Shown one piece after another: positions 34,016 through 54,516 of a stretch of DNA of 64,000 nt. The notes below the pieces were generated by a model that was not told where the DNA came from, did no database searches, and saw only the letters and a program-made list of their open reading frames with translations. Source of the stretch: Escherichia coli (GTDB lineage Bacteria > Pseudomonadota > Gammaproteobacteria > Enterobacterales > Enterobacteriaceae); NCBI RefSeq assembly GCF_002854065.1, contig NZ_CP024147.1; one strand, 5' to 3'. The translations under genes and the position numbers were made by a program. Position 1 is the stretch's first letter, and the number at the start of each line of letters is the position of its first letter.

Positions 34016-34092
34016 GAGATATCCTCCAGTTTCCTGCCTGGAGTATAGGCAACGTCCGGCAAAGAGAATACGTGTAATGAAGAGAAAATAAC

Positions 34093-35091
34093 CTAAAGCG
34101 TGTTGCCGTGATAAATCTGATACCCGAGGTCAACAGTGTTGTGGTTGTGATCGTTATTTTTAATTTTGCTCAGCAACATTTGGGCGGCCATCCGACCAAT
34201 ATCAAAACGGGGAGTAATTACGCTGGCGAGGCTTGGGATCATTTGCCTGCCAATCTCCAGCCCATGAAAACCCGCAATGGAAATTTGTTCTGGCACGGCG
34301 AGGTTTCGCTCGCGGCACAGCAGAAGCGCACCCATCGCAATATCGTCATTGGTGCAAAATACACCGTCTAAATCCGGGTTTGCGCTAAGGGCATCACGCA
34401 TTAACTGCATTCCTAAATGAATGGATGAGATGGCGCGTGGATTCATGCGTAATGGGGAAAGATTATGCAGCATCATCGCATCGCAATACCCCTGATAACG
34501 CTGTTCATCGCGGGTGTCATCTTTGGAACCGAGATACAGAATTTTGTGCCTGACTCGCTTCTCCAGCATGGTACACACCATGTCAAAAGCGGCCTGCCGA
34601 TTATCAAAACCGACCTCCATATCCAGCCGTTCTCCCTGTACATCCATCAATTCCACGACCGGAATGGTGGCTGAACGCAGAAATTTCACCGTCCTGATGG
34701 TGTGATATTTTTCCGAAAGTATAATCCCGTCAATGTTATAAGAGAGCAGGTTAATCACCGACTCTTCTTCGGAATCGCGATCGTAATTGTAATTAGCAAT
34801 AAGGGTCTGATAATTATGCTCAGAGGTGACGGATTCTATTCCCGCGAGAATGTCAGCGAAGAGTTGATTTTGAAATGACGGAATCAAGATACCGAGGGTA
34901 TAACTTTGTGCATTCAACAACATGCCGGGAGCGCGATTAGGGATATAATTGATCTCTTCCATAATTTTGGCGATGCGCTCGCCTGTTTCCTTTGCCACCT
35001 TTTTCGGCGAGCGGATATAACGACTCACGGTCATTTTTGTTACGCCAGCCAGCGTAGCGATATCCTGTAAAGAAATTCTGTGATTGCGCAT
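34093..35091 (-). CDS. idnR: LacI-family regulator of L-idonate catabolism
   Basis: LacI-type HTH ([21 protein letters not shown]); start placed at [10 protein letters not shown]. Confidence 0.85.
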
Positions 35092-35157
35092 AACTTCTCC
35101 CAACGTCGGGGGAATCTTCAATCTTCCCCCGAAACTACATCACAATATTTTATTCTT

Positions 35158-36477
35158 TCAGTGCAATACGGCGTTAATGGCTAACACGCCCAGCAAACCC
35201 ATAATAGAAATAAGGGTTTCCATCACCGTCCAGGTACGCAACGTTTCACCAACCGTCAGATTAAAATACCCTTTAAATAGCCAGAAGCCAGGGTCGTTTA
35301 CGTGTGACGCGATCACGCTGCCCGCACCGGTTGCCAGTACCATTAAAGCGGGATCGGCATGGGTAACGTTGATAATCGGCAACACCACACCCGCGGTGGT
35401 AATGGCCGCGACGGTGGCAGAGCCCAGAGCGATACGCAACAGCGCCGCAACAGTCCAGCACATCAATAACGGCGAAAGCGTAGTTCCGGTCATTAAGTGT
35501 GAAATATAGTGCCCGACACCGCTATCTACTAATACCTGCTTAAACGCGCCGCCGCCAGCGATAATAAACACAATCATCGCGATAGCGCCTATAGAATCCC
35601 CAATGATATCCATGATTTGCTCGATGGTGCGTCCATTACGTCGGCCCAGTGTGAAAATCGCAATAACAATGGCAATAAACAGCGCAACGGCAGGGTTACC
35701 GACAAATTCAAAGAAGAGGCGCACGGTGTTAGTTTTCGGTAACGTAATTTCACAAACGGCGGCGATAGCCATCAGGATGACCGGGATCACGGCAGCGAAA
35801 ATACTGTTCCAGAAGGAGGGCATCTCCTCTTCGCTAAACAGATGAGGATTAAATAAGCCTTCCGGTGGTGCTTTCTCAAAGCGAGTTAGCAGTTTAGAAA
35901 ACAGCGGTCCTGCGACAATAACTGTCGGAATGGTAATGATAAATCCATACAGTAAAGTCGTTCCGAGATTAGCCTCAAAGATAGTCGCGATGGCAGTAGG
36001 CCCTGGATGTGGCGGCAGAAAACAGTGGGTTACAGAGAGCGCTGCTACCATTGGTACGCCAACATACAACAGGGGTAATCCTGATGATGCTACGATGGTA
36101 AATACCAACGGCAACAGCAGGACAAAACCCACTTCAAAAAACATGGCGAGGCCCACAACCAGACCAGTGATCACTAGCGCCCATTGCACGCGTTTTTTAC
36201 CAAAAGTAGCAATCAGCGTAGTGGCGATACGTTGTGCCGCACCCGTATCAGAAATCAGCTTGCCTAACATGGCCCCGAAACCGAGGATCATTGCCAGCCC
36301 ACCGAGCGTGCTGCCGATACCATTTTGTATAGAGTGCAGGACGGCCTGTGCATCCATCCCTTCGGCAAATCCGACGACGGCAGCTACCAGAACGAGGGCA
36401 ATAAAGCCGTTAACTTTAAAGCCGATCATCAGGATAAGAAGCAGCGCGACGCCTGCCGCAATAATGATTAATGGCAT
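35158..36477 (-). CDS. idnT: GntP-family L-idonate/5-ketogluconate transporter
   Basis: 439-aa polytopic GntP permease sequence. Confidence 0.88.
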   Translation of the reverse strand: MPLIIIAAGVALLLILMIGFKVNGFIALVLVAAVVGFAEGMDAQAVLHSIQNGIGSTLGGLAMILGFGAMLGKLISDTGAAQRIATTLIATFGKKRVQWALVITGLVVGLAMFFEVGFVLLLPLVFTIVASSGLPLLYVGVPMVAALSVTHCFLPPHPGPTAIATIFEANLGTTLLYGFIITIPTVIVAGPLFSKLLTRFEKAPPEGLFNPHLFSEEEMPSFWNSIFAAVIPVILMAIAAVCEITLPKTNTVRLFFEFVGNPAVALFIAIVIAIFTLGRRNGRTIEQIMDIIGDSIGAIAMIVFIIAGGGAFKQVLVDSGVGHYISHLMTGTTLSPLLMCWTVAALLRIALGSATVAAITTAGVVLPIINVTHADPALMVLATGAGSVIASHVNDPGFWLFKGYFNLTVGETLRTWTVMETLISIMGLLGVLAINAVLH

Positions 36478-36541
36478 AGTCTTTATCTCTTATTAGTGCC
36501 AGAAAAGCAGCGCTTTCGCGCTGCACGTAGGGTAGTAGGTG

Positions 36542-37306
36542 TTAAACAGCCACTAACATGCCGCCATCAACAAACAACAGGTGGCCGTTTACGAAATCAG
36601 AGGCTTTTGAAGAAAGGAACACCGCAGCACCAATCAGTTCCTGCGGATCTCCCCAGCGTGCGGCGGGGGTCCGTTTGCACAACCAGGCGGTGAAGGCTTC
36701 GTCCTCAACCAGTGCTTTAGTCATTTCTGTTTTGAAATAGCCCGGCGCAATACCGTTGACCTGAATATTGTGGCGCGCCAGCTCGACGCACATGCCGCGG
36801 GTGAGCATTTTTACCGCCCCTTTCGATGCGGCATAAGGGGTGATGGTGTCACGTCCCAGTTCGCTTTGCATCGAGCAAATATTAATAACTTTACCTGCCT
36901 TGCGTTCAACCATGTGACGAGTTACTGCTTGCGATACCAGGAACACGGCGGTCTGGTTTACTGCGATCACATCATTCCACTCTTGTTCAGGGAACTCAGT
37001 AAAAGGATGACGGCGCTGGATACCGGCGTTATTCACCAGCACATCAATGGGGCCGATGTCCTTTTCGATATGTTCAACGGCGGCATCAATTTCATGTTTA
37101 TGAGTAACATTAAAAGGTGCGGCAACGGCCTGAATACCCTCCTGGTGGAGTTTTTCTACAGCAAGTTCTGCGCGTTCGGCAGTAATATCATTAATAATTA
37201 TTTGTGCGCCATATTTACCCAGGCCGGTTGCCAGTAAAAAGCCAATGCCCTGTGCTGAACCGGTAATCAAGATATTTTTTCCTGCCAGTGAAAATAGATC
37301 GTTCAT
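36542..37306 (-). CDS. idnO: 5-keto-D-gluconate 5-reductase (SDR)
   Basis: 254-aa SDR with TGSAQGIG Rossmann motif. Confidence 0.88.
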   Translation of the reverse strand: MNDLFSLAGKNILITGSAQGIGFLLATGLGKYGAQIIINDITAERAELAVEKLHQEGIQAVAAPFNVTHKHEIDAAVEHIEKDIGPIDVLVNNAGIQRRHPFTEFPEQEWNDVIAVNQTAVFLVSQAVTRHMVERKAGKVINICSMQSELGRDTITPYAASKGAVKMLTRGMCVELARHNIQVNGIAPGYFKTEMTKALVEDEAFTAWLCKRTPAARWGDPQELIGAAVFLSSKASDFVNGHLLFVDGGMLVAV

Positions 37307-37329
37307 TGTATTATTCCTTTATTTATCTC

Positions 37330-38361
37330 TTAGAAAACAAGCTGGACTTTTGCTGCCTGGGTTTTATCACCGGCGAAACGTAGCGCCTCTTCCAGGTCAG
37401 TGAAGGGATATTCAGCACTCAGTAAAGGCAGTGGATTGATAACGCCATTCGCCAGCCATGACACTGCGGTATTAAATTCGCTGGTAAAACGGAAAGAGCC
37501 TTTGAGTGAAATCTCCTTACCAATCAATGTCATCATTGGGAATTCTGCCATCGCGCCTCCCATACCTACCTGCACCATTACGCCGCGTGCACGAGTGACC
37601 TCCAGACAGGTATTCACTGATGAAGGATGACCGGACACTTCAAAGCTGACATCGAAATAGCCTTTTTCCGCTTTCCAGTGATCCATGTCGTCGTTTTGTG
37701 GGTTTACGAGCACATCCGCCCCCATCTCTTTACCCAGCGAAAGGGAACGGGGACTCACATCGGCACAGACAATTTCCGCGGCCCCCAGTGTTTTCACAGC
37801 ACTGACAATCAGGCAGCCAATGGGCCCAACACCAGAAATAAATACTCGCTTGCCCTGTAACTCGCCGGCCTGATGTGCGGCATGAATCGCGACGGCTAAA
37901 GGTTCGGCAAAAGCCATAACCTTTTCGTCAGCTTTGGCCGGATAAGGGACACATTGCGACGTTTCGACCATTTTATAACGGGTAAAACCACCATCAACAT
38001 GAGGGAAATACATGGCACTGCCAAAAAAACGCATATCTGTACACTGATTCTCGTTATGTTCAATGCAGTATTTGCAGTGACCGCACGGTTTAGACGGATT
38101 AATGGCTACCGTTTGCCCTTCATGTAATTCTGATGAGTCGCTATGAATAACTTTACCGATAACTTCATGACCTAACACCATCGGTGCCTTTATCATGAAA
38201 TTACCTACTTTTCCTTCCTGATAATAATGTAAATCGGAACCGCAAATTCCACCTCGGGTTATTTGTACTAATGTTCCATTATTATTCCAATCTATCGTCT
38301 GCTCGGTAACGGCAACAGTTTTCTTGCCCGCAACAACGCAGGACTGTGTTTTCACTTGCAT
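37330..38361 (-). CDS. idnD: L-idonate 5-dehydrogenase (Zn-dependent MDR)
   Basis: 343-aa MDR with GHE and Zn-cysteine cluster (CGHCKYC). Confidence 0.88.
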   Translation of the reverse strand: MQVKTQSCVVAGKKTVAVTEQTIDWNNNGTLVQITRGGICGSDLHYYQEGKVGNFMIKAPMVLGHEVIGKVIHSDSSELHEGQTVAINPSKPCGHCKYCIEHNENQCTDMRFFGSAMYFPHVDGGFTRYKMVETSQCVPYPAKADEKVMAFAEPLAVAIHAAHQAGELQGKRVFISGVGPIGCLIVSAVKTLGAAEIVCADVSPRSLSLGKEMGADVLVNPQNDDMDHWKAEKGYFDVSFEVSGHPSSVNTCLEVTRARGVMVQVGMGGAMAEFPMMTLIGKEISLKGSFRFTSEFNTAVSWLANGVINPLPLLSAEYPFTDLEEALRFAGDKTQAAKVQLVF

Positions 38362-38577
38362 AAATTCCTCACTGGTCAGGTAGACACCTCGGAAGCATTT
38401 AAGCGGTTTTAATTGTTATTATTTGTGATGAAGATCACGTCAGAAAATTGTTACATTACTATGTTACGCATAACGTGATGTGCCTTGTAATTCTTATCAG
38501 CAGAAATAAAAAAACGTGAAATTATTATGCCACCAGGCGTAGTATCGCAGCAGGTAAGATGATTCAGGAGATTTTAA

Positions 38578-39141
38578 ATGGCGGGTGAAAGCTTTATTTT
38601 GATGGGCGTTTCAGGGAGTGGTAAAACATTAATTGGTAGCAAGGTTGCCGCGTTATTATCTGCTAAATTTATTGATGGTGACGATCTTCATCCAGCCAAA
38701 AATATAGATAAAATGTCGCAGGGTATTCCATTATCTGATGAAGATCGACTTCCCTGGCTGGAACGCTTAAATGATGCTTCATACAGTCTTTATAAAAAGA
38801 ATGAAACAGGATTTATTGTCTGTTCATCATTAAAAAAACAGTATCGTGATATTTTACGCAAGGGTAGCCCCCATGTTCATTTCCTCTGGTTAGATGGCGA
38901 CTATGAAACTATTCTCGCGCGAATGCAGCGTCGGGCTGGGCATTTTATGCCGGTAGCGTTACTAAAAAGTCAGTTTGAGGCACTGGAGCGTCCACAAGAA
39001 GATGAACAGGATATTGTGCGCATTGATATCAACCATGATATTGCCAATGTCACTGAACAATGTCGGCAGGCTGTGCTGGCGATACGACAAAACAGAATAT
39101 GTGCGAAAGAGGGCAGCGCCTCAGATCAGCGCTGCGAATGA
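38578..39141 (+). CDS. idnK: Gluconate kinase (thermosensitive isoform)
   Basis: 187-aa P-loop kinase (GVSGSGKT). Confidence 0.88.
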   Translation: MAGESFILMGVSGSGKTLIGSKVAALLSAKFIDGDDLHPAKNIDKMSQGIPLSDEDRLPWLERLNDASYSLYKKNETGFIVCSSLKKQYRDILRKGSPHVHFLWLDGDYETILARMQRRAGHFMPVALLKSQFEALERPQEDEQDIVRIDINHDIANVTEQCRQAVLAIRQNRICAKEGSASDQRCE

Positions 39142-39144
39142 TTT

Positions 39145-45833: not shown

Positions 45834-47402
45834 ATGAGTAATAATAACGATATCGTACAAAAACTGTGGAACCTGTGTGATGTACTGCGTGATGACGGCA
45901 TCAACTACAGCGATTACGTCACCGAACTAGTGCTACTACTGTTTATCAAAATGGTGCATGAAAATACCGAAGCAGAATTATTAGATCAGCACACTTTACC
46001 GCAGGGCTGCCGCTGGAGCGATCTCAACAGTTTATCGGGCCTCAACTTGCTTAACCATTACAAACAAATGCTGTTGAAGCTCTCCAGCGGCAAAGACGCT
46101 GAAGGTAATTCGGTTCATGCTGACCCGCTGATTAGCGCCATTTATGACGATGCGCAGACCCGCCTGCGTGAGCCTCGTCATCTCGAACAGATGATCCGCA
46201 CCCTCGACCAAATTGACTGGTTTAGTGCTAAAAAAGACGGTCTCGGTGATCTTTATGAAGGTCTGCTGGAGAAAAACGCCGGAGAAACAAAATCTGGCGC
46301 AGGTCAATATTTTACGCCGCGGGCCTTAATTAACAGCATGGTACGCTGCATTAAGCCACAGGCTGGAGAAGTGATCCAAGATCCCGCTGCGGGCACCGCA
46401 GGGTTTTTGATTGCCGCCGATCAATACATCAAGCAACAAACTGACAACCTCTACGACCTTACTGCCAAAGCGAGAACCTTTCAAAAAAATAAAGCCTTTA
46501 TTGGTGTGGAACTGGTTCCGTCTACGCGCCGCCTGGCACTGATGAACTGCCTGCTACACGGCATCGAAGGGGATGACGAAGGCGTCGTGCATCAGGGCAA
46601 CGCGTTGGGCATGGTGGGTGCTAGCTTGCCCAAGGCCGATATCATTCTTGCTAACCCGCCGTTCGGTACGGCGAAAGGCGGTGAAGCCAGCATTACTCGT
46701 GATGACTTAACCTACCCAACTAGTAACAAACAGCTAGCGTTTTTACAGCATATCTACCGTAACTTAAAACCGGGTGGCCGTGCAGCTGTGGTGCTACCCG
46801 ACAACGTCCTGTTTGAAGCGGGTGTTGGCACCGATGTACGCCGCGACCTTATGAACAAATGTAACCTGCACACCATTTTACGTTTACCCACCGGGATTTT
46901 TTACGCCCAAGGGGTGAAAACCAACGTTTTGTTCTTCACCAAAGGCAGCGCCAACAACAAACATCAGGATGAAAATTGTACCGAAAACGTCTGGATCTAT
47001 GATCTGCGTAGTAACATGCCAAGCTTTGGCAAACGCACCCCGTTTGGTGAGCAACATTTAAAACCCTTTGAAGCGGTTTACGGCGACGATGCCAACGGTC
47101 AAAGCCCACGCAGTGAAGGGGAATGGAGTTTTAACTCCGACAAACTTGACGTGCCCGATAACGCCGAAAATCAGCACGTTGACAACCGCATGGCGACCAG
47201 CCGTTGGCGCACATTCAGCCGTGAATGGATCCGCGATGTTAAAGGTGATTCATTAGATATTGCATGGCTGAAAGATAACAACAGCGTTGATGTGACTAAC
47301 CTGCCTGAACCTAGTGTATTAGCGATTGAAGCAAAAGAAGAATTAACCACTGCTTTAGCAGAACTGGATGCTTTATTGACTTTATTAGGAGCAACTCGCT
47401 GA
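45834..47402 (+). CDS. hsdM: Type I restriction-modification N6-adenine DNA methyltransferase subunit
   Basis: N-terminal HsdM_N-like sequence (DIVQKLWNLCDVLRDDG), motif I DPAAGTAGFL, catalytic NPPF; start at the ATG with AGGA RBS. Confidence 0.9.
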   Translation: MSNNNDIVQKLWNLCDVLRDDGINYSDYVTELVLLLFIKMVHENTEAELLDQHTLPQGCRWSDLNSLSGLNLLNHYKQMLLKLSSGKDAEGNSVHADPLISAIYDDAQTRLREPRHLEQMIRTLDQIDWFSAKKDGLGDLYEGLLEKNAGETKSGAGQYFTPRALINSMVRCIKPQAGEVIQDPAAGTAGFLIAADQYIKQQTDNLYDLTAKARTFQKNKAFIGVELVPSTRRLALMNCLLHGIEGDDEGVVHQGNALGMVGASLPKADIILANPPFGTAKGGEASITRDDLTYPTSNKQLAFLQHIYRNLKPGGRAAVVLPDNVLFEAGVGTDVRRDLMNKCNLHTILRLPTGIFYAQGVKTNVLFFTKGSANNKHQDENCTENVWIYDLRSNMPSFGKRTPFGEQHLKPFEAVYGDDANGQSPRSEGEWSFNSDKLDVPDNAENQHVDNRMATSRWRTFSREWIRDVKGDSLDIAWLKDNNSVDVTNLPEPSVLAIEAKEELTTALAELDALLTLLGATR

Positions 47403-48778
47403 TGAGTAAGATTATTCTACCTGAAGGGTGGTCCAATTGTACTCTTGCAGATATTGCTGAAGTTAACCCTAAAAAAATAGAGGCTGAACCTGACATAATT
47501 GCAGGCTTTGTTCCTATGTCTCATGCCCCAACAAACTATTACGGGAAATTAGAGTTTGAAGAAAAGACTTGGGGTGAAATTGGTAAATCTTACACTAACT
47601 TTAAAAATGATGATGTGATTTTTGCAAAAGTAACGCCTTGTTTTGAAAATGGTAAAGCAGCAATTGTAAAAGATATGCCAAATAATATCGGTGCAGGCAG
47701 CTCTGAATTTTATGTTCTACGCGCTCGTAATCAAGAGATACCAGCCAGTTATTTACTTGGGATTATTAAGACCAGAAAATTTATGCAGGAAGGTGCAGAA
47801 AATATGACAGGTGCTGTTGGTCTGCGCCGTGTTCCAAGGGCTTTCGTTGAAAGCTTTCCTTTGATACTTCCCCCTCTTGCAGAACATAAAATCATCGCCG
47901 ATAAACTCGATATTCTGTTAGCACAGGTCGAAAGCGCCAAAGCACGCCTTGAGCAAATACCACAAATCCTGAAGCGTTTTCGTCAAGCGGTGTTGGCATC
48001 TGCGGTGAGTGGAAAATTAATACCAAAGGATCAAAAGTCCAATGTACGATTTGATGTCTCAGTTGGTTCACTTTGTATAACTTCGTTTGATGGCCCTTTT
48101 GGGTCAAAATTAAAAACGGCTGATTATACAAATGCGGGTGTTCGTGTCGCTCGACTAGAAAATATTGGTCATTTAACATTTAATGATGAAAAAGAAACGT
48201 ATATCAGCGATACAAAATTTAATAGCCTAAAAGGAAATAAGCTCGAAAAGGATGATGTGTTATTCTCATCATTTGTAGATGAAGATGTTCGTGTATGTCT
48301 TTTTCCACATAACGATAAAATTTTTATAAACAAGGCAGATTGTTTTTGTTTAAGGATCAATCAAGAAATAGCATCACCAAAATATGTAGCTTTAACATTA
48401 GCAAGCAGAACTTCGTATGAACAAATTAAAGCACAGGTTCAAGGTGTAACACGACCTCGTATTAATTTAAAGACGTTAAGGTCTTTGTCGTTTACGTTTC
48501 CTTCTCTACAAGAACAAAACGAAATTGTTCGCCGCGTAGAACAACTCTTCGCCTATGCTGATGGCATCGAAAAGCAGGTACACAACGCCCTTGAGTGCGT
48601 CAACAACCTCACACAGTCGATTCTGGCTAAAGCATTTCGTGGGGAACTCACGGCGCAATGGCGTGCAGAAAATCCCGATTTAATTAGTGGTGAAAATAGC
48701 GCACAAGCATTACTGGTGAAAATTCAACAGCAGCGCAAAAACATAAAAAATATCAAACGCAACAAGGGTAATAATTGA
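47402..48778 (+). CDS. hsdS: Type I restriction-modification specificity subunit
   Basis: 458-aa ORF, start overlaps the hsdM stop (TGATG); two target-recognition-domain halves separated by conserved helical spacers. Confidence 0.85.
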   Translation: MSKIILPEGWSNCTLADIAEVNPKKIEAEPDIIAGFVPMSHAPTNYYGKLEFEEKTWGEIGKSYTNFKNDDVIFAKVTPCFENGKAAIVKDMPNNIGAGSSEFYVLRARNQEIPASYLLGIIKTRKFMQEGAENMTGAVGLRRVPRAFVESFPLILPPLAEHKIIADKLDILLAQVESAKARLEQIPQILKRFRQAVLASAVSGKLIPKDQKSNVRFDVSVGSLCITSFDGPFGSKLKTADYTNAGVRVARLENIGHLTFNDEKETYISDTKFNSLKGNKLEKDDVLFSSFVDEDVRVCLFPHNDKIFINKADCFCLRINQEIASPKYVALTLASRTSYEQIKAQVQGVTRPRINLKTLRSLSFTFPSLQEQNEIVRRVEQLFAYADGIEKQVHNALECVNNLTQSILAKAFRGELTAQWRAENPDLISGENSAQALLVKIQQQRKNIKNIKRNKGNN

Positions 48779-50481
48779 TGCGACTGATTTCTTTAGATTT
48801 GAGAGGCAGCTACAAAGGCTTGAAAGATCAATTCTTTGACTTCAGTTATGCCCAAGATAATATAATTGCATTGATTGGCCTTAATGGTTCTGGTAAATCT
48901 CAATTGCTTGAGTTAATCGGAGAAACTTTTGCTTATCTAGAGCGATGGCAACGTGCAGAGTTCAAAAATAAAACATCGTTAGGTTTTAGCGTCGCGGTAC
49001 ACTATCAATGGGATCTTAGAAATGATAGTGCTGTTATATCTTACCCAGACGAGCTCATGAATCATGGTGAGAGCATTGAGCTAAAGGTAACTATTGAGCT
49101 TGACGGCGATGTGTTTTTAAATGTTCGTGGTACTTATGAGTGGCATGTAATACAGCTTGGTGAGCGCCATTTCCCCATCCCTCTCGTGGTTGGTTATGCT
49201 TCGGGGCTAAACGAAAATTTACAGCGAAGTTTTATGAAAAATGCTGTGCAATATTTTGAAGTCCGTCGAATTAGTAGCCAGCGTCTAAAAATGCTATCAC
49301 GAGAAATTAATGATGAACAGTTGGCTGAAATCAATAAGAAGTATCTTAAAAAATACCCACACATATTTGATCCTTTATCAGAAGGTGATTTTTTTCCAAA
49401 TTATCACCTGAATTTGAGAGAAGTGAATCCTGCCCCTAGCAATTTTAACTATCTTGATTACGATAATATTGGGCTCTTAATTTTATCGCTATCGATTCTT
49501 CCGGCTGGGACAGTATTTCAACTATTAGATGAAATAACATATAAACATCCTGTCAAAGCTGTACTTCATTACGACTTTCGTTCTGGCATCATAGAAGATG
49601 ATGCCATTCGTGATGTGAAAATGTTGATCCGTATAGCAGGCTCCGATCAAGTAAGGCCAACAGGAGGCCGAACTACAGATAACCAGTATGAACTTTATGA
49701 GTTAGAATATCTGTCTGGAGAAATCACTCTCGAATTAAGTGATGAGGCTGTTTTAAACCGACTTCGTGAAGATAACTACTTTGATTCTTTCGCATTATTT
49801 AAAAGACTTAATAATATTCAACAGCTTGGCATAAAGAACTGGGATCGTACATCTCGTTTGAAATTGATGAAAGATGATTTTATAGGTACGGTAAAAAAAC
49901 CGCTTCAGTCAAGGTTACCTTTATCTGTTGTTGAGTTATTAATGGCTAATGAACAGGGCGATACCGTGAAGTTTGATGATTTATCTGACGGTGAAGCTCA
50001 ATTGATTCAGGTTGTTGCCGCAACAAGGATATTCAGTCAGGTTCAAGCGCTATTTCTTTTTGATGAGCCAGAAACACACCTTAATCCGTCTTGGCGTACC
50101 TATTTTCATCAGCGTTTAACTGAAGCATTTACACCTGGAAATGAGAGGAAAGGTCAATCGCAATTCTTTCTATCTACTCACTCACCATTCATGATTTCCT
50201 CGCTCAAACGCGAGAATGTATTTTTCTTCGAGCGTAGTGATATGGGTTGTATCAGTATGGAACCGGTGTCCAGCCAGACTTATGGCACATCATTTGATGT
50301 CTTGGTTAAGAACCACTACGGTCTGCGTTCCCTTATTTCACAGACAGTGGTGAAGGATGTTAAAAATCGATTACCAGAAGATAATAATCCTGAAGCAGTT
50401 ATAGCTGCGCGACTCTGGATTGAGGAAAATCTGGGAGAATCAATGGAAAAGGCTTATCTGCTAAGGAAACTAGATAGCTAA
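48778..50481 (+). CDS. ABC/SMC-like P-loop ATPase (AAA_15/AAA_21-like), candidate defence ATPase (Septu PtuA-like)
   Basis: Walker A GLNGSGKS near the N-terminus; signature-like LSDGEAQL, Walker B LFLFDEPETHLNP and H-loop STHSP near the C-terminus; start overlaps the hsdS stop. Confidence 0.7.
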   Translation: MRLISLDLRGSYKGLKDQFFDFSYAQDNIIALIGLNGSGKSQLLELIGETFAYLERWQRAEFKNKTSLGFSVAVHYQWDLRNDSAVISYPDELMNHGESIELKVTIELDGDVFLNVRGTYEWHVIQLGERHFPIPLVVGYASGLNENLQRSFMKNAVQYFEVRRISSQRLKMLSREINDEQLAEINKKYLKKYPHIFDPLSEGDFFPNYHLNLREVNPAPSNFNYLDYDNIGLLILSLSILPAGTVFQLLDEITYKHPVKAVLHYDFRSGIIEDDAIRDVKMLIRIAGSDQVRPTGGRTTDNQYELYELEYLSGEITLELSDEAVLNRLREDNYFDSFALFKRLNNIQQLGIKNWDRTSRLKLMKDDFIGTVKKPLQSRLPLSVVELLMANEQGDTVKFDDLSDGEAQLIQVVAATRIFSQVQALFLFDEPETHLNPSWRTYFHQRLTEAFTPGNERKGQSQFFLSTHSPFMISSLKRENVFFFERSDMGCISMEPVSSQTYGTSFDVLVKNHYGLRSLISQTVVKDVKNRLPEDNNPEAVIAARLWIEENLGESMEKAYLLRKLDS

Positions 50482-51647
50482 TGTTATTTTCACTTAATCC
50501 ACAGACGCCTCAATGTTCGGTATTTGCATTTCTTAATGCTGAATTTCTTCATTTTTTGCAAGCTACTATTAATGCTGATGTATTCTCAGAAAACTTATTC
50601 CGCACTTTTCCTGAGATGATTGAAGATACAGAAGTACTTGTCCCTAGTGTATGTTGGAGTAATGAGCCCACAAGAGAGAAATTTCTTGGGTTATGGGAAG
50701 CGCGGCCTACGACCGTTGCGCAGCGACGGGAGTTGTCAGACCAAATAAGTCAGGCTCAGGATATTAATGTATTTTTCAACAATACCCAAGCTGTATTGCC
50801 GCAATTAGTACCAGCCTCTTTATTCGAAGCATGTAAGGCGTTAACAACTCATTTGTTTACACGTACCAAAGATCTAGCTCAAGCAAAGTCACAATCCAAT
50901 AGTTCTATTGAAAAACATTATCAGAATTTCGTCAGAGAAAATAATAATAGCCATCTATGTCCTATTTGTGGCACTGCACTTCTCTCTCAAAATCGAGAAA
51001 GCGTAGCAGAGGAAGAACAATGGCGATCAGATTATGACCACATTCTTTGCAAAGATAAATATCCAGTTTACAGTGTCCATCCAGGAAACTTCATTCCGAC
51101 TTGCCATATTTGTAATAGTAAAGCTAAAGGGGCAAGGGACTTACTGAATACTGTTGGTCTCCAGAGACGATTAGCATTTTATCCACTTCCCCCATCACAA
51201 GAGTCATGTGAGCAATTTGTTGTGGTATCGCTTCACCTCAGTGACCGTAGAGATTTAATTGTGAATAGTTGGGAAACACCGTTGGAGTCAGCATCCATTT
51301 TATTCCCCAGAGCTCCAGCTGACATAGTAGATAAAATAGGTGTATGGAAAGAAGTTTATAAAGTACCAGAAAGAGTTGAACAGCATCTTAAGGTCAACTT
51401 TTGCGAGCGTATAGCCGCTGATCTACGACCAGTAAGCTTTGATGATTTCTGTGAGCAATTACATAGATATTCGAGACAAATGCCAGCAGACTATAGAAAA
51501 TCGGAATGGAGGTTTTGGTGGCAGAAAGTCTATGAATTCTTATCAGATCAAAATAGAGACTATTTACACGATGTGTGGATATTAATTGCCTGGAAATTAA
51601 GGTTATCAAATGATGCTGATATGGCTGATACGTTTAATCAAATTTAA
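50481..51647 (+). CDS. HNH-endonuclease-domain protein, partner of the upstream ATPase (Septu PtuB-like)
   Basis: Central motif CPICG...DYDHILCKDKYP...NFIPTCHICNSKAKG (CxxC...DH...N...CxxCN); start overlaps the ATPase stop (TAATG). Confidence 0.65.
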   Translation: MLFSLNPQTPQCSVFAFLNAEFLHFLQATINADVFSENLFRTFPEMIEDTEVLVPSVCWSNEPTREKFLGLWEARPTTVAQRRELSDQISQAQDINVFFNNTQAVLPQLVPASLFEACKALTTHLFTRTKDLAQAKSQSNSSIEKHYQNFVRENNNSHLCPICGTALLSQNRESVAEEEQWRSDYDHILCKDKYPVYSVHPGNFIPTCHICNSKAKGARDLLNTVGLQRRLAFYPLPPSQESCEQFVVVSLHLSDRRDLIVNSWETPLESASILFPRAPADIVDKIGVWKEVYKVPERVEQHLKVNFCERIAADLRPVSFDDFCEQLHRYSRQMPADYRKSEWRFWWQKVYEFLSDQNRDYLHDVWILIAWKLRLSNDADMADTFNQI

Positions 51648-51661
51648 ATTTTACTTCAACA

Positions 51662-51691
51662 GGGTGAGAGTATTGTTACTCTCCCTTTTTA
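51662..51691. terminator. Hairpin plus T-run between convergent HNH gene and nuclease-motif gene
   Basis: GGGTGAGAGTAttgtTACTCTCCC followed by TTTTT; overlaps the last codons of the minus-strand gene. Confidence 0.5.
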
Positions 51692-52848
51692 AAATACATT
51701 GTAGAAGGTGCGCTTATTACTACGCAACCATCAATGCCTTTTATCTTCAATACCCCTTCCTTGAATTTAACATGTTCTTGTGTTGCTCGAGTGCAGTCCC
51801 ACAGGAAGCTGATGATATACGAATCCTTATATTTTTCGTCGACACGATAAAGTGACGCATCTTCTGCAATTTCTCCTATTAGTGCAGGAAACGATTTTTT
51901 TGTATCTTTTCGGTATTTTACTTCAATAATTGTGTGCAGTGATGGCAGATAAAGGTCTATGCGGGGGTTTTTTTGTCCGACAGGCTGAAGATTCACCTCA
52001 TCTGCAATATCGTTGAATATTGGCGCAAGTAGGATATAAAGCAGATTCTGAACATGATATTCATTTTCAACTTGCCACTTTACGGGCTCTGCGCCTCTGG
52101 TTCGACCTGAGTCCTCCCATGTCCATCGTTTTAACCCTGCAGGGATATGTTCCAGAAATCCTAGCAGGTCATCCAGTGTCCATCCAGACGGTGGAGCAAT
52201 GGCAATTTCCTGATTAATTTGATTAAAAACGTAAAGCATTACACACAAGAGAGTAACTGAAGGATTTTCTGTAGCTTGTGCTTGAAATTCGCTCATGAAA
52301 CGTCCGACAAGAGAAAGTCGGTTCTGATGACTATTGATCTTCAATAACTTTCGATAATGAAGGAAGAGTGGTATGCAGGCACTACTAAAGGAGGCTGATT
52401 CGCTGTTACCGACATATGCCGCGATATCTTTCTCGAAGATACTTAGATGGTTGCTTTCAATTTGCTGAGCCAGAAACCCTGAAATCCACTTTTCGAACTC
52501 GTGATTTATGCTCTCATCTTGCATCTGTGCCGTTAGCCATTTCACTGCCATTACACCGAACATATCCGATACCCAAGGTCTCGGTGTTGAATCAATCTTG
52601 GGAGCTTGTCCGAGCAGGCGAGAGACATCCTGGACCGAGACAGTTTCATCTAGAATACCTAAACCTGAAATTGCACAGCGTTGGTATAAAGATAGGTCCG
52701 CAAAGCTAAAATTCGTAATGCAGCTTTTATCTCCTTCCAGGAGACTAAAAAAGCAGGACTTAAATGGATCAATGTGAGCGGATTCGATCACCTTACTGTG
52801 AAAATAGTCGCGTAGCTGATAAACGTTTTCTTTCTCTATAGGAACCAT
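51676..52848 (-). CDS. Predicted PD-(D/E)xK-motif nuclease, candidate effector partner of the upstream Argonaute
   Basis: 390-aa ORF; C-terminal motif ...RIDLYLPSLHTIIEVKY (D-x(n)-E-x-K) preceded by a helix with conserved Glu; start overlaps the pAgo stop by 13 nt. Confidence 0.55.
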   Translation of the reverse strand: MVPIEKENVYQLRDYFHSKVIESAHIDPFKSCFFSLLEGDKSCITNFSFADLSLYQRCAISGLGILDETVSVQDVSRLLGQAPKIDSTPRPWVSDMFGVMAVKWLTAQMQDESINHEFEKWISGFLAQQIESNHLSIFEKDIAAYVGNSESASFSSACIPLFLHYRKLLKINSHQNRLSLVGRFMSEFQAQATENPSVTLLCVMLYVFNQINQEIAIAPPSGWTLDDLLGFLEHIPAGLKRWTWEDSGRTRGAEPVKWQVENEYHVQNLLYILLAPIFNDIADEVNLQPVGQKNPRIDLYLPSLHTIIEVKYRKDTKKSFPALIGEIAEDASLYRVDEKYKDSYIISFLWDCTRATQEHVKFKEGVLKIKGIDGCVVISAPSTMYFKKGE

Positions 52849-53175
52849 TGTGAATGCCCTATTTTTCCAATCATGACTGAGTCACTCCAGCCCGGAAGCT
52901 GATTCAACCATCCTAAATTATGGGCGATAAGATCGGAATAAGTGATGGTAACTGGCATGGGATTGGGGAAGTAACTACGCCAGGAGTGTGATGCGAAACT
53001 GTAGAGCTGAGCACTCAAATACTTAATATCTTTGAAGGTCGAGTCTTTATGAACGTTGACGATCACACCACGTGGATGACCGTCCGTTTCTTGTCGTAAT
53101 TCACGTTGGCCGATCAGGTAAACAAGCATTTCGTTTTTAGAAAGCTTAAACGTATTTCCGCGATGTGTCGCCAGG

Positions 53176-53180
53176 CGTCC
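53176..53180. repeat. IS2 target-site duplication, left copy (CGTCC)
   Basis: Identical 5 bp directly flanking both IS2 ends. Confidence 0.85.
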
Positions 53181-53271
53181 TAGACTGGCCCCCTGAATCT
53201 CCAGACAACCAATATCACTTAAATAAGTGATAGTCTTAATACTAGTTTTTAGACTAGTCATTGGAGAACAG

Positions 53272-53637
53272 ATGATTGATGTCTTAGGGCCGGAGAAACG
53301 CAGACGGCGTACCACACAGGAAAAGATCGCAATTGTTCAGCAGAGCTTTGAACCGGGGATGACGGTCTCCCTCGTTGCCCGGCAACATGGTGTAGCAGCC
53401 AGCCAGTTATTTCTCTGGCGTAAGCAATACCAGGAAGGAAGTCTTACTGCTGTCGCCGCCGGAGAACAGGTTGTTCCTGCCTCTGAACTTGCTGCCGCCA
53501 TGAAGCAGATTAAAGAACTCCAGCGCCTGCTCGGCAAGAAAACGATGGAAAATGAACTCCTCAAAGAAGCCGTTGAATATGGACGGGCAAAAAAGTGGAT
53601 AGCGCACGCGCCCTTATTGCCCGGGGATGGGGAGTAA
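53272..53637 (+). CDS. insC: IS2 OrfA (InsC, HTH protein)
   Basis: 121-aa sequence [26 protein letters not shown]... recognised as IS2 InsC. Confidence 0.9.
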
Positions 53638-54500
53638 GCTTAGTCAGCCGTTGTCTCCGGGTGTCGCGTGCGCAGTTGCACGTCATTCTCAGACGAACCG
53701 ATGACTGGATGGATGGCCGCCGCAGTCGTCACACTGATGATACGGATGTGCTTCTCCGTATACACCATGTTATCGGAGAGCTGCCCACGTATGGTTATCG
53801 TCGGGTATGGGCGCTGCTTCGCAGACAGGCAGAACTTGATGGTATGCCTGCGATCAATGCCAAACGTGTTTACCGGATCATGCGCCAGAATGCGCTGTTG
53901 CTTGAGCGAAAACCTGCTGTACCGCCATCGAAACGGGCACATACAGGCAGAGTGGCCGTGAAAGAAAGCAATCAGCGATGGTGCTCTGACGGGTTCGAGT
54001 TCTGCTGTGATAACGGAGAGAGACTGCGTGTCACGTTCGCGCTGGACTGCTGTGATCGTGAGGCACTGCACTGGGCGGTCACTACCGGCGGCTTCAACAG
54101 TGAAACAGTACAGGACGTCATGCTGGGAGCGGTGGAACGCCGCTTCGGCAACGATCTTCCGTCGTCTCCAGTGGAGTGGCTGACGGATAATGGTTCATGC
54201 TACCGGGCTAATGAAACACGCCAGTTCGCCCGGATGTTGGGACTTGAACCGAAGAACACGGCGGTGCGGAGTCCGGAGAGTAACGGAATAGCAGAGAGCT
54301 TCGTGAAAACGATAAAGCGTGACTACATCAGTATCATGCCCAAACCAGACGGGTTAACGGCAGCAAAGAACCTTGCAGAGGCGTTCGAGCATTATAACGA
54401 ATGGCATCCGCATAGTGCGCTGGGTTATCGCTCGCCACGGGAATATCTGCGGCAGCGGGCTTGTAATGGGTTAAGTGATAACAGATGTCTGGAAATATAG
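53595..54500 (+). CDS. insD: IS2 OrfB (InsD, DDE transposase; expressed as an OrfAB fusion by -1 frameshift)
   Basis: 301-aa ORF overlapping insC in the -1 frame; DDE integrase-core-like sequence. Confidence 0.9.
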
Positions 54501-54511
54501 GGGCAAATCCA

Positions 54512-54516
54512 CGTCC
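54512..54516. repeat. IS2 target-site duplication, right copy (CGTCC)
   Basis: Identical 5 bp directly flanking both IS2 ends. Confidence 0.85.

Follow-up and report, generated by a model that had tools for sequence, protein, structure and literature searches.

The Argonaute locus in the analysed stretch of Escherichia coli DNA (64,000 nucleotides, hereafter the window) is very probably a BPAN system whose sensor was disabled by IS2 so recently that the nuclease bAgaN persists unaltered, though with nothing left to activate it. [quoted passage not shown] An earlier note on this DNA had placed the gene pair among the abortive-infection pAgo systems built from a sensor and a nuclease. That reading was borne out, as the locus is the published EcBPAN system; the interpretation is supported, yet already known.

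Identity of the bAgaN nuclease

The bAgaN gene occupies positions 51676–52848 on the minus strand. Both the open reading frame listing and direct reading of the sequence confirm that this 390-codon frame starts 13 nt ahead of the pAgo stop on the same strand. The pAgo frame ends with ...CAA TGG TTC CTA TAG at position 52836, and the ATG of bAgaN, at 52848, lies inside it. The segment common to both frames, ATGGTTCCTATAG (52836–52848, minus strand), comprises 13 nt with the stop codon included. A weak AGGG element resembling a Shine–Dalgarno sequence is present 9 nt 5' of this ATG. Short plus-strand frames located within or over bAgaN (51610–51855, 52020–52217, 52416–52709, and 52508–52777) are taken to be shadows of the coding strand.

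The C-terminal domain of bAgaN (residues 234–382) is a PD-(D/E)xK nuclease in which the D-EVK catalytic motif is present. The nuclease fold, proposed from the letters and open to a Pfam check, was recovered as a match to REase_DpnII-MboI (PF18742, 5.5e-43, residues 234–382), and also through the PADLOC profile Aga_Helical-REase (PDLC02404, 3.7e-132; protein residues 8–384 on profile positions 2–367 of 368) and PDB entry 23wq. The motif that had been read as a glutamate-bearing helix followed by RIDLYLP and TIIEVKY corresponds to E263 in the helix preceding the other elements, D298 in RIDLYLP, and E309 and K311 in TIIEVKY. This E263...D298...E309-x-K311 arrangement is invariant at all four residues in an alignment of 71 homologues. 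One detail requires correction: because the Pfam nuclease domain spans residues 234–382, the unassigned N-terminal part covers about 230 residues rather than the approximately 270 given in the earlier note. An AlphaFold2 model built from the 71-sequence alignment (mean pLDDT 89) consists of an all-helical N-terminal domain (residues ~9–215) and an alpha/beta C-terminal domain.

A sequence search of the PDB with bAgaN returned one match, chain 23wq_1 'EcbAgaN', which covers residues 1–390 of 390 (E=1.9e-260). The two proteins share 379 of 390 residues (97.2%) and differ by 11 substitutions (E7G, D40V, N115D, I137V, G147S, N176D, I211T, K317R, A322L, Y385S, and G389K), none of which falls at a column invariant in the 71 homologues. 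With 8 EcAgo and 8 EcbAgaN chains, entry 23wq is a deposited structure containing both proteins. A literature search for a paper on 23wq or for later structural work on BPAN found none in the library searched.

Function of the characterised EcBPAN system

EcBPAN consists of EcAgo and EcbAgaN of E. coli (Song et al., Nat Commun 2023, PMC10620215). EcAgo takes small RNAs with a 5'-phosphate from the transcriptome as guides and targets single-stranded DNA, and the study reports no DNA cleavage by this protein (PMC10620215). EcbAgaN, a dimer, cleaves single- and double-stranded DNA, though not RNA, in an Mn2+-dependent manner, and the D298A and E309A-K311A mutants are dead (PMC10620215). Basal DNase activity is seen in vitro without EcAgo and is inhibited at ~200 mM salt, while the EcAgo–guide RNA–target complex stimulates non-specific DNA degradation by EcbAgaN even at 200 mM salt; a stable complex of the two proteins was not recovered by pull-down (PMC10620215).

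In cells, expression of EcAgo and EcbAgaN together lowers viability ~279-fold with degradation of the chromosome, the trigger being a plasmid with a CloDF13 origin (PMC10620215). No protection was observed against phages T5, T7, and lambda-vir (PMC10620215), and the natural targets of EcBPAN are therefore still poorly defined. By analogy with these experiments, the catalytically inactive EcAgo of an intact system would load 5'-phosphorylated small RNAs from the transcriptome, and the guide would pair with single-stranded target DNA, in the experiments that of the CloDF13-origin plasmid. The resulting complex of EcAgo, guide, and target would stimulate the dimeric Mn2+-dependent DNase bAgaN, which, once activated, would degrade DNA indiscriminately, including the chromosome. 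Death of the plasmid-bearing cell would purge the plasmid from the population.

Disruption of the Argonaute gene by IS2

The sensor gene is broken and the effector frame is intact, as had been claimed: a complete IS2 lies in pAgo, and bAgaN retains its 390 codons. The element (53181–54511, plus strand) is 1331 bp long, runs from TAGACTGG to AAATCCA, carries orfA/orfB, and is 99.6–99.9% identical to annotated IS2 copies; its transposase genes, on the plus strand, are antiparallel to pAgo. It is flanked by a 5-bp target duplication, CGTCC, at 53176–53180 and 54512–54516, with a boundary ambiguous by 1 nt. On one side, the first 630 codons of the long-B pAgo, EcAgo (54512–56403, minus strand), match positions 2–612 of the 724 in the PADLOC pAgo_II profile (5e-231). 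On the other side, the C-terminal remnant (52836–53180, minus strand) holds the last ~112 codons, the PIWI end, matches pAgo_II positions 608–724 (2.9e-56), and is colinear with the intact gene of locus L001.

In silico removal of IS2 together with one copy of CGTCC yields an open reading frame of 2232 nt encoding 743 amino acids, identical at 743 of 743 residues to WP_197986481.1 of E. coli VTB96935v. Because removal restores this protein completely, IS2 is the only lesion of pAgo, situated after codon 630 of 743 and inside PIWI. The restored protein aligns over 731 residues with the chain 'EcAgo' of PDB 23wq (E=0); its next solved relatives are the entries of RsAgo (5awh/6d8a, ~1e-70), which is inactive. 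A functional BPAN requires an intact full-length long-B pAgo (N-L1-PAZ*-L2-MID-PIWI), and the window carries an interrupted one. By taking the last ~112 PIWI residues out of the reading frame, the insertion after codon 630 would disable the system.

Whether the effector left behind is toxic or silent on its own had been posed as a question, and the answer is in print. EcAgo or EcbAgaN expressed singly has little effect on viability, killing depends on EcAgo together with a 5'-phosphorylated RNA guide and single-stranded target DNA, and the discussion of that work states explicitly that EcbAgaN causes no cell death by itself, as tested with an allele that has 11 amino acid differences from the bAgaN of the window and was over-expressed from plasmids (PMC10620215). 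The bAgaN of the window, which would not be activatable without EcAgo, is expected to be silent, because the nuclease is non-toxic without EcAgo and because its transcription would depend on read-through across the antisense IS2. Promoter-like sites on the bAgaN strand were found only upstream of pAgo (56446–56418) and at the IS2 junction (54522–54494), which is weak evidence. An outward promoter running from IS2 toward bAgaN was also considered and rejected: a consensus promoter scan of the minus strand between the two (52848–53181) found no site, although such scans carry little weight in either direction. The known outward -35 element of IS2 presumably lies at the other end (IRR) and points away from bAgaN.

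Age and rarity of the insertion

The intact locus of E. coli VTB96935v provides a close reference for dating the insertion. It is uninterrupted, and its annotation lists an 'argonaute/piwi family protein' of 743 amino acids followed by a 'PD-(D/E)XK nuclease domain-containing protein'. Between the two strains, bAgaN shows 0 differences in 1173 nt (100% DNA identity), and pAgo, IS2 aside, shows a single difference, which is synonymous. The flanks of IS2 are colinear with the VTB96935v sequence (NZ_CP178662.1), with 4 mismatches across 10,782 aligned nucleotides of one flank and 2 across 9,489 of the other. Since bAgaN is identical in DNA and pAgo has acquired one synonymous change only, the insertion is judged to be very recent. 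It is too recent for decay, so the intact effector frame is no evidence of selection.

The lesion is also rare. The locus was found in one of 5,426 complete E. coli genomes (VTB96935v), where it is intact. On all 24 other contigs that were read and encode exactly the same bAgaN, the neighbourhood is the same and includes an intact pAgo of 743 aa, and the exact 689-aa truncated pAgo–IS2 fusion protein, sought in public assemblies, is not on record. On these grounds, the pAgo::IS2 lesion appears to be strain-specific.

The surrounding defence island

The BPAN locus lies on a defence island beside an integrase and tRNA-Leu (leuX). The same island carries a type I restriction-modification operon (hsdR, hsdM, hsdS) and a PtuA/PtuB-like pair of ATPase and HNH proteins, convergent with bAgaN. 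The island (39145–64000) is 99.97% identical to that of VTB96935v, and the adjacent core genes (1–39144) are ~98.4% identical. This difference is consistent with recent horizontal spread and suggests that the island moved between lineages recently.

Within the restriction-modification operon (47402–51647, plus strand), hsdS is followed by a gene for a 568-aa AAA ATPase, with overlapping stop and start codons. The ATPase matches PADLOC PtuA (5e-44) and, under the cut-off, NCBIfam TIGR04435 'restriction system-associated AAA ATPase'. The 388-aa protein encoded after it contains an HNH-like stretch of the PtuB/PDC-M62B type (residues ~140–225), and the two would form a Septu-like pair within the type I operon. 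The stop of the 388-aa gene is 28 nt from that of bAgaN, and a hairpin (51666–51683) is found between these convergent genes. In addition, a segment of ~5.1 kb between yjgR and ahr (34055–39144) is present in the window and absent from VTB96935v; we take it to be the site of the idn (L-idonate) genes on the K-12 map.

Linkage of bAgaN to pAgo in other species

The association of bAgaN with Argonaute genes extends well beyond the window. A tblastn search of plasmids found bAgaN homologues in 6 records, of which 5 were read (Shewanella, Fibrella, Roseomonas sp. OT10, Alicycliphilus, and Methylococcus) and Roseomonas gilardii (H30) was left out. A PADLOC pAgo_II gene or fragment stands directly 5' of the homologue in all 5 plasmids read. 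The conjugative Shewanella putrefaciens plasmid pSA70-2 encodes a full-length long-B pAgo (L002, 1821–4013; pAgo_II 3.1e-293), for which the GenBank label 'lipase chaperone' is apparently wrong. The bAgaN of this plasmid shares 72.7% identity with the E. coli protein, and the 13-nt overlap is the same. Among clusters built at 90% identity, bAgaN and pAgo occur in E. coli, Klebsiella, Enterobacter, Cronobacter, Yersinia, Hafnia, and Pectobacterium.

A species survey was seeded on the bAgaN motif, with one genome per species, and the frames at its 79 loci were classified by HMM searches. Both genes are intact at 62 loci. The pAgo gene is broken and bAgaN intact at 2 (L018, L049), and pAgo is intact with bAgaN broken or partly matching at 3 (L024, L086, L087). 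Two loci (L057, L073), both cyanobacterial and matching by the nuclease domain only, have no pAgo within 8 kb; the remaining 10 are at contig edges, where a pAgo fragment is cut off by the end of the contig in 5 cases. A long-B pAgo gene or fragment is therefore found directly upstream of bAgaN at 67 of the 69 informative loci, which, together with the five plasmids, upholds the co-occurrence of the two genes on which the earlier note had made its reading depend. The note had also proposed translational coupling. The overlap measures 13 nt in 33 of the 62 intact pairs of other species and 4 nt in 19 more, so tight coupling of pAgo and bAgaN is a conserved feature.

Several loci combine a broken pAgo with an intact bAgaN. 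On the Roseomonas sp. OT10 plasmid (L008, 3783–7707), pAgo is split by IS1380 into parts matching profile positions 2–404 and 407–724. In Oculatella sp. LEGE 06141 (L049, 4005–7719), a transposase of the IS4 family splits it between profile positions 267 and 265. The Alicycliphilus denitrificans plasmid pDP3 (L005, 3000–4687) holds a 145-aa C-terminal pAgo fragment and then bAgaN, with an oxidoreductase as the upstream neighbour. In Methylomonas fluvii (L018, 5257–9170), pAgo lacks the first ~210 profile positions and abuts a gene for an RHS-repeat protein. Three cyanobacterial proteins (L057, 7578–8516; L073, 7914–8408; L054, 70–912) match only the nuclease half (profile ~221–391). The first two have no pAgo within the 8 kb upstream, and the third lies at a contig edge that hides its upstream side. 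Such proteins may represent a pAgo-independent branch of the nuclease family.

These cases bear on the possibility that an orphan bAgaN keeps a role independent of pAgo, as a basal DNase against incoming DNA or as the partner of another sensor, and is retained for that reason. The recurrence of an intact bAgaN beside a broken pAgo at the four loci above, the two or three cyanobacterial loci with a nuclease domain and no pAgo nearby, and the basal activity of EcbAgaN without EcAgo (PMC10620215) would all accord with it. However, that activity is inhibited at ~200 mM salt, and expression of EcbAgaN alone leaves viability and plasmid retention unaffected (PMC10620215). In the window, the nuclease gene is 100% identical in DNA to that of an intact locus, and its retention reflects lack of time, not selection. 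Moreover, the reverse state, in which bAgaN is broken and pAgo intact (L024, L086), is about as frequent as the state in question (L018, L049), in a survey whose seed biases it toward intact bAgaN. A retained independent role is consequently regarded as very unlikely, and bAgaN is better read as the silent remainder of a disabled BPAN.

Also unlikely is the idea that the insertions in BPAN pAgo genes (IS2, IS1380, and the IS4-family element, three independent cases) record a recurrent, selected disarming of the sensor when a cell acquires a trigger plasmid. If this were true, each event would leave the nuclease gene harmless, with loss of the element or recombination as a way to re-arm it, and the window would be a natural 'effector-only' genotype. 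A bias toward broken sensors and intact effectors was considered as a general pattern and set aside: the survey has 2 such loci against 2 to 3 of the reverse kind, and no support for preferential sensor loss was seen, in a data set that is an unfair test of such a bias because it was seeded on the bAgaN motif. Truncated bAgaN variants of 282–295 aa occur on many contigs (for instance 291 aa in Klebsiella pneumoniae, 92 contigs; 295 aa in E. coli, 17), showing that effector-side lesions also circulate in Enterobacteriaceae.

State of the interrupted sensor

A further alternative is that the Argonaute still works as a split protein, with the 630-residue N-terminal fragment, extended by its IS2-encoded tail, and the 112-residue C-terminal fragment reassembling to leave the system armed. 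Natural split architectures exist, such as short pAgo with APAZ and AfAgo with an N-L1-L2 partner (PMC10954474). The C-terminal fragment also lies in frame with a GTG inside IS2 (53315), which opens a 159-aa frame (52836–53315). The break, however, falls inside PIWI (profile position ~610 of 724) and not at a domain boundary. The frame of the N-terminal part (54334–56403, 689 aa) ends in 58 foreign codons from IS2, with its stop at 54334, and the C-terminal fragment has no evident promoter or ribosome-binding site. No such split occurs in any of the 62 intact loci. Reassembly into a working sensor is thus extremely unlikely. An assembly or cloning artefact in a strain with an intact BPAN would agree with the intact pAgo on all 24 contigs and with the absence of the exact fusion protein from public records, but its probability is practically negligible, given that the 1331-bp IS2 is complete, has the correct ends, and is flanked by a clean 5-bp duplication, as genuine transposition would leave it. 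The reading of a BPAN locus disarmed by a real and recent transposition is therefore retained.

Comparison with known systems

For annotation, the gene can be named bAgaN (BPAN effector nuclease) and the locus 'BPAN, pAgo::IS2, inactive'. Beyond this, the significance is small, as the system is known and experimentally characterised, structure included. For an allele 97% identical, published work already covers the fold assignment, the toxicity of the nuclease in the presence and absence of pAgo, interference with plasmids, and challenge with phages. The sole local novelty is a natural pAgo::IS2 allele with the effector untouched, which might serve as a ready-made control and opens no new question.

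The closest counterpart is EcBPAN itself, which shares with the window the species, the gene order, the 390-aa length, residues D298, E309, and K311, and 97.2% identity in bAgaN. The window locus differs from it by 11 substitutions in bAgaN and by a pAgo cut by IS2, which makes it an effector-only remnant. The wider group includes BPAS (with Sir2), BPAM (with a membrane protein), and SPARTA, SPARSA, and SPARDA, in which an inactive Argonaute with 5'-phosphorylated RNA guides likewise senses invader single-stranded DNA and turns on a toxic effector, leading to abortive infection. In BPAN, the effector is a separate PD-(D/E)xK DNase, whereas the other systems employ a Sir2 or TIR NADase, a membrane protein, or an APAZ-fused DREN nuclease. 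EcbAgaN is non-toxic alone, unlike GbbAgaS (PMC10620215). Also among the closest known systems are the ancillary nucleases of type III CRISPR, Can2 and Card1, and PD-(D/E)xK restriction enzymes such as N.BspD6I and the DpnII/MboI family.
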